Virus record (IMG/VR): IMGVR_UViG_2671180378_000015
Length of the DNA: 29,797 nt
Direction: 5' to 3' (one strand)
Source: a virus
Lineage: Duplodnaviria; Heunggongvirae; Uroviricota; Caudoviricetes
In this document: positions 1 through 8,834 of the stretch, piece after piece
Layout: each line of letters starts with the position of its first letter
How positions within the stretch are numbered: the first letter of the stretch is position 1
The notes under the pieces: generated by a model
What the model was told of the DNA's origin: nothing
The model's input: the letters and a program-made list of their open reading frames with translations, nothing else
Database searches by the model: none
Translations under genes and position numbers: made by a program

Positions 1-1
1 C

Positions 2-118
2 ATCTCAGTAATACGGGAATACAATGAGATTGTCTACAATCGACAGCGTCGTCACTCTCGTCTGGGGAATATCTCCCCGGCAGGCTACAGGGAAAAATAT
101 CATCAGATGGCTGCTTAA
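2..118 (+). mobile_element. C-terminal end of a transposase/integrase-core (rve-like) ORF, truncated by window start
   Basis: Frame 2 reads ...EIVYNRQRRHSRLGNISPAGYREKYHQMAA then stop at 116-118; the YN-x-R-x-HS-x-LG-x-SP motif is typical of the C-terminus of IS3-family/retroviral-integrase-like DDE enzymes. Confidence 0.4.
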
Positions 119-352
119 AAAAAGAACAAAGGGTAGTGTCCGCTGTTGCCAGTACACCGCAATAGTTGCAATTCATAATTGATCATGGGTTGTCAGTTAA
201 ACTCGTGGCGATTTAAATAGACTAATTGGGAGTGCGTCCATTACTTATATCTTGTAATGTTAACTATCAGAAATGATACAAAGATAATATGTCTTTAAAG
301 AAAAGGCTGATGGCGAAAAGTGGCCCGATGAGGGCCACAATACGGCTGTCAC

Positions 353-685
353 TTAGACGTAAATATCAATGGTGCCAGCGGTATTTGTATCGTCTTTTTT
401 CTCTTCTTTTTTATCAGGCTGAACTGTCGCGTCTTTATTCTTTTTCTCTGCCTGCTGCCTTAACAACTGCTCCAGTTGAGCCCTGAGGCTTTCAATTTGC
501 TTCTGTACCAATGCAGCCATTTCTTTTTTCTGCTGTGTCGTCATCCCCTCTTCCGATGAGATTTTCCCAAGCTTTTCAGTCAGCACCTGAATTTGTCTTG
601 TGATTTTGGCTATTTCTGATGTTCCTTCCGGGGCGGAGTTGTTTGAAATAACGGTTGAGGTATTTCCCTGAATTGTGACAGACAT
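353..685 (-). CDS. flxA: FlxA, FliA-regulated prophage protein (110 aa)
   Basis: ORF track 110 aa MSVTIQGNTSTVISNN...; recognised as Qin flxA; preceded by a sigma28-type promoter. Confidence 0.85.
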   Translation of the reverse strand: MSVTIQGNTSTVISNNSAPEGTSEIAKITRQIQVLTEKLGKISSEEGMTTQQKKEMAALVQKQIESLRAQLEQLLRQQAEKKNKDATVQPDKKEEKKDDTNTAGTIDIYV

Positions 686-708
686 AGATTTCTCCTTTTA
701 AAAAAGCA

Positions 709-735
709 CTATCGGCATGCACAAAAAAATCTTTA
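709..735 (-). promoter_or_regulatory. sigma28 (FliA) class-3 flagellar promoter for flxA
   Basis: Minus strand reads TAAAGATT-N11-GCCGATAG, near-perfect match to sigma28 consensus TAAAGTTT-N11-GCCGATAA, about 25 nt upstream of flxA start; RBS AGGAG (rc of 686-690) before ATG. Confidence 0.6.
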
Positions 736-887
736 ATCGTATTTCTTGTGTCATTAATTGTTTGATGTTCAGATTGTTTTCCTCGCGGGCTGGCGCGCCT
801 CAGAAAGTAAAGCTTGTTGACAGGGGTAAACGTTCGGCAATAATTTTCTGCCGCATGCGGGTGTTGCATAAAACGTGCTACGTTCCT

Positions 888-1193
888 TTATCGACAGGTC
901 AGGTCACCGCTCACCCGCCGACGAGAAAGCAACACTGACATGCTAAAGCAAAAAATAGATGAATAAGTTGAGTTGTGCATATGTAGCCTGACCGTCACAA
1001 AGTATATGGTGTCTGTACCAGTAAGATGATGGCCGGACTCTTTAAAAACGAGCTGACCTGCACAATACAGGATGGACTTAGCAATGGCTGCTCCTGGCAC
1101 AAAGCGGACAGTGATCACCGTTCTTACGACTACTTTCTGACTTCCTTCGTGACTTGCCCTAAGCATGTTGTAGTGCGATACTTGTAATGACAT
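888..1193 (-). CDS. ydfV: YdfV-like small prophage protein (101 aa)
   Basis: ORF track 101 aa; position between flxA and relB matches Qin ydfV. Confidence 0.55.
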   Translation of the reverse strand: MSLQVSHYNMLRASHEGSQKVVVRTVITVRFVPGAAIAKSILYCAGQLVFKESGHHLTGTDTIYFVTVRLHMHNSTYSSIFCFSMSVLLSRRRVSGDLTCR

Positions 1194-1206
1194 TTGTAAT
1201 TACAAG
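1181..1206 (+). promoter_or_regulatory. relBE operator (relO) inverted repeat in promoter region
   Basis: cttgtaat gacatttgt aattacaag palindrome (CTTGTAAT / ATTACAAG arms) 12 nt upstream of relB start. Confidence 0.6.
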
Positions 1207-1217
1207 AGGTGTAAGAC

Positions 1218-1457
1218 ATGGGTAGCATTAACCTGCGTATTGACGATGAACTTAAAGCGCGTTCTTACGCCGCGCTTGAAAAAATGGGTGTAACTCCTTC
1301 TGAAGCGCTTCGTCTCATGCTCGAGTATATCGCTGACAATGAACGCTTGCCGTTCAAACAGACACTCCTGAGTGATGAAGATGCTGAACTTGTGGAGATA
1401 GTGAAAGAACGGCTTCGTAATCCTAAGCCAGTACGTGTGACGCTGGATGAACTCTGA
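1218..1457 (+). CDS. relB: RelB antitoxin (79 aa)
   Basis: ORF track MGSINLRIDDELKARSYAALEKMGVTPSEALRLMLEYIADNERLPF...; ATGA overlap with relE. Confidence 0.9.
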   Translation: MGSINLRIDDELKARSYAALEKMGVTPSEALRLMLEYIADNERLPFKQTLLSDEDAELVEIVKERLRNPKPVRVTLDEL

Positions 1458-1744
1458 TGGCGTATTTTCTGGATTTTGACGAGCGGGCACTAAAGGAATG
1501 GCGAAAGCTGGGCTCGACGGTACGTGAACAGTTGAAAAAGAAGCTGGTTGAAGTACTTGAGTCACCCCGGATTGAAGCAAACAAGCTCCGTGGTATGCCT
1601 GATTGTTACAAGATTAAGCTCCGGTCTTCAGGCTATCGCCTTGTATACCAGGTTATAGACGAGAAAGTTGTCGTTTTCGTGATTTCTGTTGGGAAAAGAG
1701 AACGCTCGGAAGTATATAGCGAGGCGGTCAAACGCATTCTCTGA
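1457..1744 (+). CDS. relE: RelE mRNA-interferase toxin (95 aa)
   Basis: ORF track MAYFLDFDERALKEWRKLGSTVREQLKKKL...; start overlaps relB stop. Confidence 0.9.
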   Translation: MAYFLDFDERALKEWRKLGSTVREQLKKKLVEVLESPRIEANKLRGMPDCYKIKLRSSGYRLVYQVIDEKVVVFVISVGKRERSEVYSEAVKRIL

Positions 1745-1815
1745 ACCAAAGCATGACATCTCTGTTTCGCACCGAAGGTGACACTTCTGCTTTGCGTTGA
1801 CAGGAGAAGCAGGCT

Positions 1816-1971
1816 ATGAAGCAGCAAAAGGCGATGTTAATCGCCCTGATCGTCATCTGTTTAACCGTCATAGTGACGGCACTGGTAACGAGGAAAGACC
1901 TCTGCGAGGTACGAATCCGAACCGGCCAGACGGAGGTCGCTGTCTTCACAGCTTACGAACCTGAGGAGTAA
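1816..1971 (+). CDS. hokD: HokD (RelF) Hok-family membrane toxin, 51 aa; not in ORF track (below size cutoff)
   Basis: Hand translation from ATG 1816: MKQQKAMLIALIVICLTVIVTALVTRKDLCEVRIRTGQTEVAVFTAYEPEE, stop TAA 1969-1971; hydrophobic N-terminal TM segment typical of Hok family; RBS caGGAGaagcaggct ATG. Confidence 0.8.
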   Translation: MKQQKAMLIALIVICLTVIVTALVTRKDLCEVRIRTGQTEVAVFTAYEPEE

Positions 1972-2040
1972 GAGACCCGGCGGGGGAGAAATCCCTCGCC
2001 ACCTCTGATGTGGCAGGCATCCTCAACGCACCCGCACTTA

Positions 2041-2066
2041 ACCCGCTTCGGCGGGTTTTTGTTTTT
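2041..2066 (+). terminator. Rho-independent terminator after relBE-hokD
   Basis: acccgc ttcg gcgggt stem-loop followed by T-rich tract (tttttgttttt). Confidence 0.6.
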
Positions 2067-2187
2067 ATTTTCAACGCGTTTGAAGTTCTGGACGGTGCCG
2101 GAATAGAATCAAAAATACTTAAGTAGCGCGCAGGGATAAGAGGGATGGTCCCTTAAAGGGGAGAGCTAATTATCCGGAAGGATTCTG

Positions 2188-2439
2188 ATGATGAACATCG
2201 AAGAACTGCGTAAAATTTTTTGTGAAGATGGCCTCTATGCTGTGTGCGTTGAAAATGGAAATCTTGTTAGTCATTACCGCATTATGTGTTTGCGAAAGAA
2301 TGGGGCTGCGTTAATTAATTTTGTGGATGCTCGGGTCACGGACGGATTTATCTTGCGCGAAGGTGAGTTTGTCACTTCATTACAGGCATTGAAAGAGATC
2401 GGAATAAAAGCTGGCTTTTCTGCTTTTTCAGGAGAATAA
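2188..2439 (+). CDS. rem: Rem-like small prophage protein (83 aa), unknown function
   Basis: ORF track MMNIEELRKIFCEDGLYAVCVENG...; position between hokD and ydfU as in Qin. Confidence 0.65.
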   Translation: MMNIEELRKIFCEDGLYAVCVENGNLVSHYRIMCLRKNGAALINFVDARVTDGFILREGEFVTSLQALKEIGIKAGFSAFSGE

Positions 2440-2505
2440 ACTCATCTACAATCTTGCGCGGGGCTGAACTCCCGCTGAGTAACACCGTGCCACCGGAGAA
2501 AACCG

Positions 2506-2784
2506 ATGGCACGCAACGCAAAATATTACAATTCTGATAATTCGCCCGTTCTTGCCTGCACGCACGGGCGGTATTCTCACGCATTCAAGTCTGAATGGTT
2601 CCAGCACCCTCCATGCACTGCAGAACAGGCCGAATGGCTGATTCATTCTTACCGCAGGCGCGGGTTCGAGGTTAAGAAAGCTCTCAGTCTCGACTATCGG
2701 CACTGGATAATCTCTGTCAGGCTGCCTTATTCCGAACGCCCACCACGTGCGTCCCGCACTTTCCAGCAACGGATCTGGAGGTAA
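2506..2784 (+). CDS. Hypothetical protein (92 aa), translationally coupled to ydfU
   Basis: ATG 2506 preceded by GGAGaaaacc; its stop TAA 2782-2784 lies 1 nt before the GTG start of ydfU and its last codons contain the ydfU RBS (GGAGG 2777-2781). Confidence 0.5.
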   Translation: MARNAKYYNSDNSPVLACTHGRYSHAFKSEWFQHPPCTAEQAEWLIHSYRRRGFEVKKALSLDYRHWIISVRLPYSERPPRASRTFQQRIWR

Positions 2785-2785
2785 C

Positions 2786-3835
2786 GTGCGGGTATTACTT
2801 AGACCTGTTCTGGTGCCTGAGCTTGGGCTGGTGGTCCTTAAGCCGGGCCGTGAATCCATACAGATATTTCATAATCCTCGAGTGCTGGTGGAACCGGAAC
2901 CAAAAAGCATGCGTAATCTGCCATCCGGAGTCGTTCCTGCCGTTCGCCAGCCGCTGGCGGAAGACAAAACATTGCTGCCGTTTTTTAGTAACGAACGGGT
3001 GATTCGTGCTGCTGGCGGCGTTGGCGCATTGTCCGACTGGCTATTACGTCATGTTACATCCTGCCAGTGGCCTAATGGCGATTACCATCACACTGAAACA
3101 GTCATTCACCGTTATGGTACCGGCGCAATGGTGTTGTGCTGGCACTGCGACAACCAACTGCGTGACCAGACATCGGAATCACTGGAGCTGCTTGCTCAAC
3201 AAAATCTGACAGCATGGGTGATTGACGTCATCCGTCACGCAATAAGCGGTACGCAGGAGCGGGAATTATCTTTGGCTGAATTATCCTGGTGGGCGGTCTG
3301 CAATCAGGTGGTGGATGCACTACCTGAGGCTGTATCGCGTCGTTCGCTGGGATTACCAGCGGAAAAAATCTGCTCGGTGTACCGCGAAAGCGACATCGTA
3401 CCGGGAGAGCAGACCGCCACCAGCATATTGAAACAACGCACAAAAAATCTTGCACCGTTGCCTTACGCCCACCAGCAACAAAAATCACCACAGGAAAAGA
3501 CGGTGGTAAGCATCACCGTTGATCCAGAGTCTCCGGAATCTTTCATGAAGCTGCCTAAACGTCGCCGCTGGGTTAAGGAGAAATACACACGTTGGGTTAA
3601 GACACAGCCGTGTGCTTGCTGCGGTATGCCAGCCGACGATCCGCATCATCTGATTGGTCACGGGCAGGGCGGAATGGGAACAAAAGCACATGATCTCTTT
3701 GTGTTGCCTTTGTGCAGAAAGCATCACAACGAGCTGCATACGGATACAGTGGCATTTGAAGATAAGTATGGCTCCCAACTGGAGCTGATATTTCGTTTTA
3801 TCGATCGCGCGCTGGCAATTGGCGTACTGGCGTAA
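2786..3835 (+). CDS. ydfU: YdfU, DUF968-type protein with C-terminal Cys/His-rich HNH-like motif (349 aa from GTG)
   Basis: Open frame 2747-3835; preferred start GTG 2786 with GGAGG 5 nt upstream; C-terminus CACCGMPADDPHHLIGHGQGG...LPLCRKHHNELH resembles an HNH/His-Me finger. Confidence 0.7.
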   Translation: MRVLLRPVLVPELGLVVLKPGRESIQIFHNPRVLVEPEPKSMRNLPSGVVPAVRQPLAEDKTLLPFFSNERVIRAAGGVGALSDWLLRHVTSCQWPNGDYHHTETVIHRYGTGAMVLCWHCDNQLRDQTSESLELLAQQNLTAWVIDVIRHAISGTQERELSLAELSWWAVCNQVVDALPEAVSRRSLGLPAEKICSVYRESDIVPGEQTATSILKQRTKNLAPLPYAHQQQKSPQEKTVVSITVDPESPESFMKLPKRRRWVKEKYTRWVKTQPCACCGMPADDPHHLIGHGQGGMGTKAHDLFVLPLCRKHHNELHTDTVAFEDKYGSQLELIFRFIDRALAIGVLA

Positions 3836-3848
3836 GTGGAGAACGAGC

Positions 3849-4601
3849 ATGAACCTTGAAGCCTTACCAAAATATTACTCCCCAAAATCTCCAAAATTGA
3901 GCGATGACGCTCCAGCGACAGGCACCGGTTGTTTAACAATTACGGATGTAATGGCAGCGCAGGGGATGGTGCAGTCGAAAGCACCACTTGGGTTGGCCTT
4001 ATTTCTGGCAAAAGTTGGTGTTCAGGACCCTCAGTTTGCGATTGAAGGCCTGCTAAATTACGCGATGGCACTGGATAACCCGACATTGAACAAATTGAGT
4101 GAAGAAATCCGGTTACAGATTATTCCTTACCTCGTGAATTTTGCCTTTGCTGATTACTCCAGGTCTGCGGCAAGTAAGGCTCGCTGTGAGCATTGTTCAG
4201 GTACGGGATTTTATAATGTATTGCGCGAAGTGGTGAAACACTACCGACGCGGGGAATCTGTAATCAAGGAAGAATGGGTGAAGGAACTATGTCAGCATTG
4301 CCATGGTAAGGGTGAAGTCAGCACAGCGTGCAGAGGGTGTAAGGGTAAAGGGATTGTTCTGGATGAAAAAAGAACCCGGTTTCATGGCGTACCGGTATAT
4401 AAGATTTGTGGGCGTTGTAATGGAAACCGGTTTAGTCGTTTACCGACCACGCTGGCACGACGTCATGTCCAGAAGCTGGTACCAGACCTGACCGATTATC
4501 AGTGGTATAAGGGGTATGCGGACGTCATTGGTAAACTGGTAACAAAGTGCTGGCAGGAAGAAGCATACGCGGAAGCGCAATTGAGGAAGGTGACGAGATA
4601 A
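3849..4601 (+). CDS. quuQ: Late-gene antiterminator Q (phage-82/21-type, Cys-rich zinc-binding) (250 aa)
   Basis: ORF track; start taken at MNLEALPKYY (ATG 3849); CxxC...CxxC clusters (CEHCSGTG, CQHCHGKG, CRGCKGKG, CGRC); position immediately upstream of a promoter-terminator pair. Confidence 0.85.
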   Translation: MNLEALPKYYSPKSPKLSDDAPATGTGCLTITDVMAAQGMVQSKAPLGLALFLAKVGVQDPQFAIEGLLNYAMALDNPTLNKLSEEIRLQIIPYLVNFAFADYSRSAASKARCEHCSGTGFYNVLREVVKHYRRGESVIKEEWVKELCQHCHGKGEVSTACRGCKGKGIVLDEKRTRFHGVPVYKICGRCNGNRFSRLPTTLARRHVQKLVPDLTDYQWYKGYADVIGKLVTKCWQEEAYAEAQLRKVTR

Positions 4602-5368: not shown

Positions 5369-5535
5369 GATTGCGTCGGTTTGAAGAACAGACGATATAC
5401 GAAGTAGTTTACTAAAGCAGTTCTCATTTCAGGTGTTATTCACTTATTCCTTCTTTGAGTCTCTCCAATTAAGTACGAAGTCGTTTCTGTTATGCAAACC
5501 ATTTATGCCGAAAGGCTCAAGTTAAGGAATGTAGA

Positions 5536-5751
5536 ATGTCAAATAAAATGACTGGTTTAGTAAAATGGTTTAACGCTGATAAAGGTTTCGGCTTTATTTC
5601 TCCTGTTGATGGTAGTAAAGATGTGTTTGTGCATTTTTCTGCGATTCAGAATGATAATTATCGAACCTTATTTGAAGGTCAAAAGGTTACCTTCTCTATA
5701 GAGAGAGGTGCTAAAGGTCCTGCAGCAGCAAATGTCATCATTACTGATTAA
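5536..5751 (+). CDS. cspB: CspB cold-shock protein (71 aa)
   Basis: ORF track [38 protein letters not shown]...; RNP1-like KGFGFI motif. Confidence 0.9.
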
Positions 5752-6032
5752 AATTCATCGCTCGTCTGTATACGATAACGAAGAAGGCTGATGCCTGAGT
5801 AGAGATACGGACAGAGTAGTGAATATTGGATCTCTTTAATAAAAAGTAAGGAGGTCCAATACATGAAACAATGGCTAGCATATTTGGCAAAATCTTAATC
5901 AGGAAAAGTATGCTAACCATTGTGGTGAAGTGCAGGTTTGCTGCATGAATAGTTTCACAGCAGAAGCTAACTGCTGGCATCGCAAAACAAAGTGCGTAAG
6001 TGGATGACTCCCACAAAAAGCACCACAATCTC

Positions 6033-8271: not shown

Positions 8272-8422
8272 GGTGTTCTGGTTTGTTACAAATTTATCTG
8301 AAGCAGTCATTGTTATAATTTTATTATTTGTACCTCTTGAGATTTCCTTGTTGGTTTTTCTCTCTGATATTTTTTTTCGGACCATTCTGCCCAAGGGCTA
8401 ATTTCTTCAAAAGGTAATAATT

Positions 8423-8635
8423 ATGTCTAACAAAATGACTGGTTTAGTGAAATGGTTTAACCCTGAAAAAGGTTTTGGTTTCATCACGCCGAAAGATGGC
8501 AGCAAAGATGTGTTTGTCCATTTCTCAGCAATTCAGAGCAACGATTTCAAAACATTAACTGAGAATCAGGAAGTTGAATTTGGTATTGAGAACGGACCTA
8601 AAGGTCCTGCCGCTGTTCATGTAGTGGCGCTTTGA
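8423..8635 (+). CDS. cspI: CspI cold-shock protein (70 aa)
   Basis: ORF track [45 protein letters not shown]... Confidence 0.9.
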
Positions 8636-8834
8636 GGTAGACAATATTACAAACCATATTCACTTTAGATGCCCGTGTTGTCATGGTTCCCAGTATAGAA
8701 CATCATCTTTTGATGTTTCTGACATGAATCCTTTCGGGGCAAAATGTATCTTTTGTAAATCAATGATGATTACATTTGATAATATTTCACAATACTTAAA
8801 TGCCAGCCGTCTGTCGTTGGATTTAAAAAAGTGA
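8625..8834 (+). other. Open frame encoding a second Cys-rich zinc-ribbon-like peptide lacking a canonical start (possible non-canonical start or decayed paralog)
   Basis: Frame reads ...HFRCPCCHGSQYRTSSFDVSDMNPFGAKCIFCKSMMITFDNISQYLNASRLSLDLKK stop 8832-8834; first ATG (8724) lies after the first Cys cluster; strong terminator immediately downstream. Confidence 0.3.

Follow-up and report, generated by a model that had tools for sequence, protein, structure and literature searches.

The flxA gene of the Qin-type lambdoid prophage analysed here is preceded by what is very probably a functional class 3 flagellar promoter; promoter and gene would together form a cassette of the kind known as a moron, and their control by sigma-28 (FliA) would be ancestral to the FlxA family. 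The window, that is the whole stretch of 29,797 bases that was analysed (IMG/VR record IMGVR_UViG_2671180378_000015), had been described in a first-pass annotation as containing a host flagellar promoter wired to a prophage gene, and this coupling was offered as a lead. The coupling is not new: FliA dependence of flxA has been published since 1997, the gene owes its name to it, and three genome-wide studies have borne it out since then. The novel part is comparative, namely that the sigma-28 promoter would belong to the FlxA family as such, which is a core chromosomal gene in many Enterobacterales. The question thereby shifts from a prophage gene with a flagellar promoter to the role of a small conserved protein of the sigma-28 regulon, and to why phages carry a copy of it.

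The promoter lies on the minus strand of the window at 735..709, where its exact string is TAAAGATTTTTTTGTGCATGCCGATAG. It is composed of a -35 element TAAAGATT (728..735), which matches TAAAGTTT (core TAAA) at 7 of 8 positions, an 11-nt spacer TTTTTGTGCAT (717..727), which is the canonical length between two 8-mers, and a -10 element GCCGATAG (709..716), which matches GCCGATAA at 7 of 8 positions. The comparison with the FliA consensus TAAAGTTT-N11-GCCGATAA gives 14 matches out of 16 and 2 mismatches. The -10 element ends (709) 23 nt before the flxA ATG (685), and the orientation of the promoter matches that of the gene; both the near-consensus FliA site and its correct placement upstream of flxA had been noticed in the first-pass annotation and hold. 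Consensus scoring of sigma-28 sites, proposed there as a check, was run over the window, and the flxA promoter was the only site (n=1) with three or fewer mismatches. The chance expectation for sites with up to two mismatches is 0.016 per window when calculated analytically and 0.02 when estimated from 300 shuffles, and the exact pattern of the flxA promoter was found in none of 100 dinucleotide shuffles of the window. With about 0.02 sites expected per window, the resemblance to a sigma-28 promoter is beyond chance. A consensus scan of the minus strand upstream of flxA revealed no sigma-70-like promoter, and an Rfam search gave no RNA family near the flxA promoter.

Downstream of the -10 element, the predicted transcription start zone extends over 699..702 (minus), at the distance of 7-10 nt that is usual in sigma-28 geometry, and a Shine-Dalgarno sequence AAGGAG (692..697, minus) is located 6 nt before the flxA ATG. 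The coding sequence (353..685, minus) encodes a protein of 110 aa. A hairpin at 338..316 begins 14 nt past the stop codon and is the probable intrinsic terminator of flxA (316..338, minus): it has a 7-bp G+C-rich stem (GUGGCCC/GGGCCAC), a 5-nt loop and a UUUU tail, with an RNA fold of -18.1 kcal/mol and z = -2.9. A simple terminator scan made no call for this hairpin because its T run has just 4 T. The message would be a monocistronic flxA mRNA with a short leader of roughly 15-20 nt, counted from the predicted start, and a strong Shine-Dalgarno sequence, and it would end at the putative terminator just past the stop codon. A second ORF, of 97 aa (576-869, minus), extends in another frame across the flxA promoter and into the 5' part of flxA. 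In several database proteins of 141-171 aa named 'Qin prophage protein' (e.g. P0098, P0101, P0105 and P0117) this ORF is fused to the C-terminal part of FlxA, and these proteins probably come from frameshifted or miscalled copies.

The FlxA protein matches the Pfam family FlxA (PF14282) with 54.1 bits against a cutoff of 26.3, passing the gathering threshold; its residues 7-101 align to model positions 2-96 of 101. It is also assigned to PHROG 11044, and NCBIfam has no family for it. The AlphaFold2 model, made from a 25-sequence alignment, is a helical hairpin with helices at 20-42 and 50-86 (pLDDT of 80-92); pLDDT is below 50 at residues 1-21, residue 4 excepted, and at 84-110, and both tails are presumably disordered in view of the model. 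In the family, the N-terminus has a conserved M-(S/T)-(S/T)-I followed by a Ser/Gly/Thr-rich stretch, and the C-terminus reads GINRPTDxNxIDVYI in chromosomal members and ends in ...IDIYV in the E. coli type. A PDB profile search with FlxA returned designed coiled coils and similar noise only, and Foldseek against PDB with the model gave nothing better than E = 0.8, the helical hairpin being a generic fold. A CdsO/FliJ-like match obtained with Foldseek (E = 1.3) was not significant and was rejected.

Functional evidence comes from E. coli K-12. Fitzgerald et al. 2014 (PMC4183435) give, in their Table 2, the 28-mer TAAAGATTTTTTTGTGCATGCCGATAGT as the FliA motif of flxA, and the promoter 28-mer of the window is identical to it. 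According to the same study there is a FliA ChIP-seq peak at flxA (FAT score 16), and flxA RNA is 280 in motile MG1655 and 2 in a fliA deletion, a significant difference (PMC4183435); these values correspond to a FliA dependence of about 140-fold with a residual expression of about 1% in the deletion. Zhao et al. 2007 (PMC1935009) found a change of -28.4-fold in flxA RNA in a fliA deletion and of +8.2-fold five minutes after FliA induction, and the ydfV/flxA spacer was recovered by genomic SELEX with the RpoF holoenzyme (Shimada et al. 2017, PMC5493296). That flxA depends on FliA and is dispensable for motility goes back to Ide & Kutsukake (Gene 199:19, 1997; cited in PMC4183435). The comparison of fliA-plus and fliA-minus backgrounds that the first-pass annotation had suggested is, then, already published for K-12 (RNA 280 vs 2; -28.4-fold), its result was not the one that would have refuted the lead, and the host sigma-28 control of flxA in a Qin-type prophage, which it had proposed, agrees with the identical 28-mer, the ChIP-seq and SELEX results and the RNA levels of 280 vs 2. 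By analogy with K-12, where the promoter is identical, the same behaviour would be expected in the present prophage. One recent phage record annotates the gene as 'Protein FlxA (FliA regulated)'. Besides, flxA is mentioned without a specific function in work on an isobutanol-tolerance deletion, in an aminoglycoside Tn-seq study and in an oxidant ASKA screen. A link between flxA and a LysR regulator, considered in relation to the chromosomal gene abutting yfeR, was discarded: the LysR paper merely lists flxA moving with the flagellar regulon.

From these data a mechanism can be proposed in which the sigma-28 (FliA) RNA polymerase recognises TAAAGATT (-35) and GCCGATAG (-10) at 11-nt spacing. 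The timing of flxA would follow the flagellar hierarchy: FlhDC activates fliA, FlgM holds FliA, and the export of FlgM after completion of the hook-basal body frees FliA, which would then transcribe flxA. The cassette is oriented against the relBE-to-ydfT genes and has its own promoter, and therefore its expression should be uncoupled from the phage programme, as the definition of a moron implies; it would be independent of both the lysogenic and the lytic programme of the prophage. As to its origin, the most economical account is that a lambdoid phage or integrative element acquired a gene of the sigma-28 regulon along with the promoter of that gene, presumably in the direction from chromosome to phage.

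The window is a Qin-type lambdoid prophage of E. coli, with the gene order flxA, ydfV, relBE, hokD, rem, ydfU, ydfT (Q antiterminator), cspF/cspB, lysis, terminase, portal, and head and tail genes through gpJ. Over most of its length it closely matches, with near identity, the Qin-like prophage at ydfJ in the O26:H11 strain 11368, and like that prophage it keeps the full set of lysis, head and tail genes, whereas the Qin prophage of K-12 is a defective remnant. With the latter it shares the flxAp promoter (flxA is b1566 in K-12; same 28-mer), the neighbours ydfV, relBE, hokD, rem, ydfU and ydfT, and the flxA-ydfV stretch at 99.5% identity. In contrast to K-12 Qin, there is what looks like an IS end about 190 nt downstream of flxA: positions 1-160 of the window have no match in most Qin-like prophages, whose alignments begin at 161, and match only the strains 95_0274 and CE10, both with annotated IS3-family (IS600) transposases close by. 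The insertion would lie past the probable terminator of flxA.

Within the prophage, flxA sits between replication-region remnants and the Q antiterminator, in the delayed-early region, on the strand opposite to its relBE-to-ydfT neighbours. Of 5426 complete E. coli genomes, 1203 contain flxA, in nearly all cases with at least 99% identity, and it was found only on Qin-type prophages; 4959 of the 5426 match some part of window positions 1-3000. As the copies are at least 99% identical, conservation within E. coli carries little information and tells little about selection. The G+C content is 0.42-0.45 across flxA and 0.45-0.47 in the adjacent 1 kb, so that the two are not clearly distinct, and this comparison with the flanks gives no compositional sign of a foreign origin for the cassette.

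Copies closely related to that of E. coli are found on other mobile elements. In a neighbour-joining tree, E. coli FlxA groups with three sequences: that of Enterobacter sp. HG048 (87-88% identical), which adjoins icd and an integrase remnant; the metagenomic copy P0119 (65-67% identical), with an IS110 element about 0.9 kb downstream; and that of a P. ananatis island (54% identical), located beside an integrase and an IS element. The chromosomal clades, which branch broadly in line with taxonomy, stand apart from this mobile clade. The promoter is present in all four members of the mobile clade, with 16 of 16 consensus positions in the P. ananatis island, TAAAGATA-N11-GCCGATAG in Enterobacter sp. 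HG048 and TAAATTTA-N11-ACCGATAT in P0119. A local blastn comparison between the window and the integrase-associated element of Enterobacter sp. HG048 (L095/L096) detected a sole region of homology, a promoter-plus-ORF module of 483 bp (342..824, minus) with 88% DNA identity, which begins 139 nt ahead of the ATG and ends 11 nt beyond the flxA stop codon; the flanks are unrelated. In IMG/VR, at least 86 viral contigs carry an E. coli-type flxA. Both promoter elements are intact in 75 of the 79 IMG/VR copies examined, where substitutions are concentrated in the spacer; the remaining four comprise two with one change in the -10 element, one with a 12-nt spacer and one with foreign upstream sequence. 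No relatives of the chromosomal-type FlxA family were found in IMG/VR viral contigs.

The FlxA family as a whole is small, with 49 representatives among 1.84 billion representative proteins. Distant members (about 23-57% identity) were detected by profile search in Pantoea, where the flxA-like gene has a core chromosomal neighbourhood without phage genes. In the first Pantoea loci looked up, the P. ananatis island copy included, the sigma-28 motif is located 29-32 nt before the ATG, and a perfect TAAAGTTT-N11-GCCGATAA is found in P. ananatis. A wider scan applied a family alignment to GTDB representatives, one genome for each species, and the best 80 of 143 confirmed relatives were analysed; the 21-sequence FlxA alignment (A1) was too diverse for the pattern scan and a narrower one (A3) was used. 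These best 80 of 143 include Erwiniaceae (Pantoea, Erwinia, Mixta, Winslowiella and Kalamiella) and Enterobacteriaceae (Enterobacter, Leclercia, Lelliottia, Pseudescherichia, Siccibacter, Scandinavium, Buttiauxella, Cedecea, Pseudocitrobacter and one Citrobacter species). The gene occupies one and the same slot in 80 of the 80 loci, in the order gltX, gap, flxA-like, yfeR (convergent), yfeH, ypeB and ligA (tblastn with the Pantoea neighbours), and the gap between gltX and flxA corresponds to the tRNA genes valU-valX-valY-lysV in the six loci checked (6/6). Pantoea, Erwinia and Enterobacter have a single chromosomal orthologue each. Two loci from assemblies labelled 'Chryseobacterium sp. 18061' (L071) and 'uncultured Alphaproteobacteria bacterium' (L073) show the full gltX-flxA-yfeR-yfeH-ligA synteny with 82-88% protein identity to Pantoea; L071 clusters with Scandinavium/Citrobacter and L073 with Erwinia, and mislabelling or contamination of both assemblies is probable.

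The strict motif T[CA]AAG-N14-16-CCGATA was found between -80 and +30 of the start in 67 of the 79 loci scored from the best 80 of 143 relatives, and it was absent from the regions upstream of 764 other ORFs (100 aa or longer) and from 18,830 random 110-nt windows, all from the same loci. The chromosomal promoters are mostly of the TCAAG variant, which is also seen at flgKL, and in most loci about 26-32 nt separate the end of their -10 element from the ATG; a distance of '5 nt' in some of them reflects an over-extended start codon. Ten of the 12 loci without the strict motif have one-base variants, e.g. TCAAC, TTAAG, TGAAG, GTCGATAA and GACGATAA, which leaves two of the 79 without a recognisable promoter. 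In the symbiont Ca. Pantoea persica (L036, 3,880-4,240) the flxA-like gene is a pseudogene, with a frameshift after six codons, and keeps the -10 element alone; in Pantoea sp. C2G6 (L016, about 3,910-4,000) the -35 element was lost to an inserted G+C-rich hairpin. The corresponding slot of K-12 (NC_000913.3, 2,516,000-2,532,000) contains gltX, valUXY-lysV, xapR-xapB-xapA, yfeN and yfeR, and a search for a flxA-like remnant between gltX and yfeR found none. Judging from the genome sequences, K-12 is without a chromosomal flxA-like copy, and the flxA copies found in E. coli genomes are all of the phage-borne type.

The sigma-28 promoter is thus a family-wide feature of FlxA, and probably an ancestral one. 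The promoter likely travelled with the gene, because sigma-28 promoters precede the chromosomal orthologues among the best 80 of 143 relatives, and what the prophage carries is most likely a member of the sigma-28 regulon that brought its promoter along, not a phage gene to which a host promoter was added later. The idea of a host promoter wired to a prophage gene is right with respect to sigma-28 control, and its framing is probably backwards, since the promoter precedes FlxA-like genes family-wide. The opposite history, in which flxA is a phage accessory gene whose sigma-28 promoter arose or was recruited inside the prophage and was only secondarily captured by the host regulon, is improbable. 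It would fit with the confinement of flxA in E. coli to Qin-type prophages, with its presence on 86 or more viral contigs and with the existence of a PHROGs family; moreover, the tree of the family has no secure root, and a neighbour-joining tree of a low-complexity protein of 110 aa cannot fix the direction of transfer, so that a phage gene could in principle have seeded the chromosomal slot in an ancestor. However, among the best 80 of 143 relatives even distant members (24-40% identity), which occupy a fixed core slot away from any phage genes, have this type of promoter at the same distance, and a promoter of phage origin would need either repeated independent origin or a very old transfer from phage to chromosome. 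The broad agreement of the chromosomal gene tree with taxonomy also argues against it, as does the fact that the mobile copies share the promoter-plus-ORF module only.

Two other explanations concern the activity of the promoter. Motifs similar to sigma-28 sites can be inert, given that 14 of 52 FliA ChIP-seq sites had significant expression changes (PMC4183435), and the flxA motif could likewise be an inactive chance resemblance, with transcription coming from a sigma-70 promoter or from phage read-through. This has almost no probability when set against the 0.02 sites expected by chance per window, the FliA binding in vivo and 140-fold drop in RNA without FliA reported for the identical K-12 sequence (PMC4183435), the lack of a sigma-70-like site in the consensus scan of the minus strand upstream of flxA, and the opposite strand of the neighbouring relBE-to-ydfT (Q) genes. 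On the other hand, the promoter could be real and prophage induction or another regulator could dominate under natural conditions, which is very unlikely as well. The divergence of flxA protein and mRNA at 42 C (PMC6551532) points to some post-transcriptional layer, and flxA turns up in several unrelated stress transcriptome lists; in those lists, however, it moves together with the flagellar regulon, and its expression in a fliA deletion is about 1% (PMC4183435). The preferred reading remains that of an active class 3 promoter carried along with its gene.

The flxA promoter has the same -35, 11-nt spacer and -10 architecture as the class 3 flagellar promoters of fliC, tar, flgMN, flgKL and motAB; for instance, the flgMN promoter is TAAAGATT-N11-GCCGATAA and that of flgKL is TCAAGTCC-N11-GCCGATAA (PMC4183435, Table 2). 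Unlike the class 3 flagellar genes, flxA lies outside the flagellar clusters and is not needed for motility, according to the 1997 title as cited in PMC4183435. Among the other non-flagellar members of the E. coli FliA regulon, whose FliA-bound promoters precede genes with no known motility role, ykfB (CP4-6 prophage) is likewise prophage-borne; its promoter is located within yafY, the gene upstream, and is only weakly regulated (118 vs 42), whereas the flxA promoter is intergenic and canonical, with about 140-fold regulation (PMC4183435).

The cassette can also be compared with morons. Like these it has its own promoter, sits between phage gene blocks on the strand opposite to its relBE-to-Q neighbours, is expressed from the resident prophage (as published for K-12), and occurs in a subset of related prophages (flxA in 1203 of 5426 genomes, some part of positions 1-3000 in 4959); the hairpin at 316..338, with its four U, would be its terminator. 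Phage morons are additional genes of lambdoid prophages with independent transcription, bor and lom of lambda being examples. In contrast to typical morons, the flxA promoter depends on an alternative sigma factor of the host, the gene has core chromosomal relatives with the same promoter, and its base composition is not clearly distinct from that of the flanks.

As for the role of the protein, FlxA-like proteins may be an unrecognised conserved component of the flagellar programme, most plausibly a late substrate of flagellar type III export, a suggestion that is tentative and on balance doubtful. FlxA combines a class 3 (sigma-28) promoter with a low-pLDDT N-terminal segment (AlphaFold2), as in late export substrates, both features being non-specific. 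In the exoproteome of E. coli DH5alpha in co-culture, FlxA, which has no signal peptide and was identified by five peptides, increased along with FlgK, FliD, FliC, FlgL, FlgM and FlgE, a set that covers the known late substrates, but CheY and several metabolic enzymes are in the same list (PMC6391000). At 42 C flagellar export breaks down and transcription of class 3 genes drops to about 2%, FlgM protein stays constant despite lower mRNA, and flxA is singled out for opposite changes in protein and mRNA (PMC6551532), the direction of which is inferred. Both proteomics observations are compatible with flagellar export of FlxA, a reading that differs from the authors' own. If it were true, lambdoid phages would carry a FlxA copy that is made only while the host builds flagella. 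Pantoea, Erwinia and Enterobacter, with their single chromosomal orthologues, are better experimental systems for FlxA.

Finally, some observations relate to the surroundings of the cassette. A sigma-70-like promoter (817-844, plus; TTGACA-16 nt-AATAAT, 11/12) is located about 80 nt upstream of the flxA promoter and faces away from it; it is antisense to the annotated ydfV ORF (888..1193, minus) and directed towards relBE, which raises the question of whether ydfV is a real gene, or whether the site is a distal relBE promoter or an antisense promoter. Two adjacent toxin-antitoxin modules stand beside the cassette on the plus strand (1218-1971), namely relB/relE (1218-1744) and hokD (1816-1971), and the part of the prophage around flxA appears as a cluster of accessory genes outside the phage cycle. 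Further along the window, two full-length matches to the cspA thermoregulator 5' UTR (Rfam RF01766), at 5375-5767 and 8277-8662 on the plus strand with 161.6 and 112.8 bits, lie upstream of the prophage cold-shock genes cspB and cspI.
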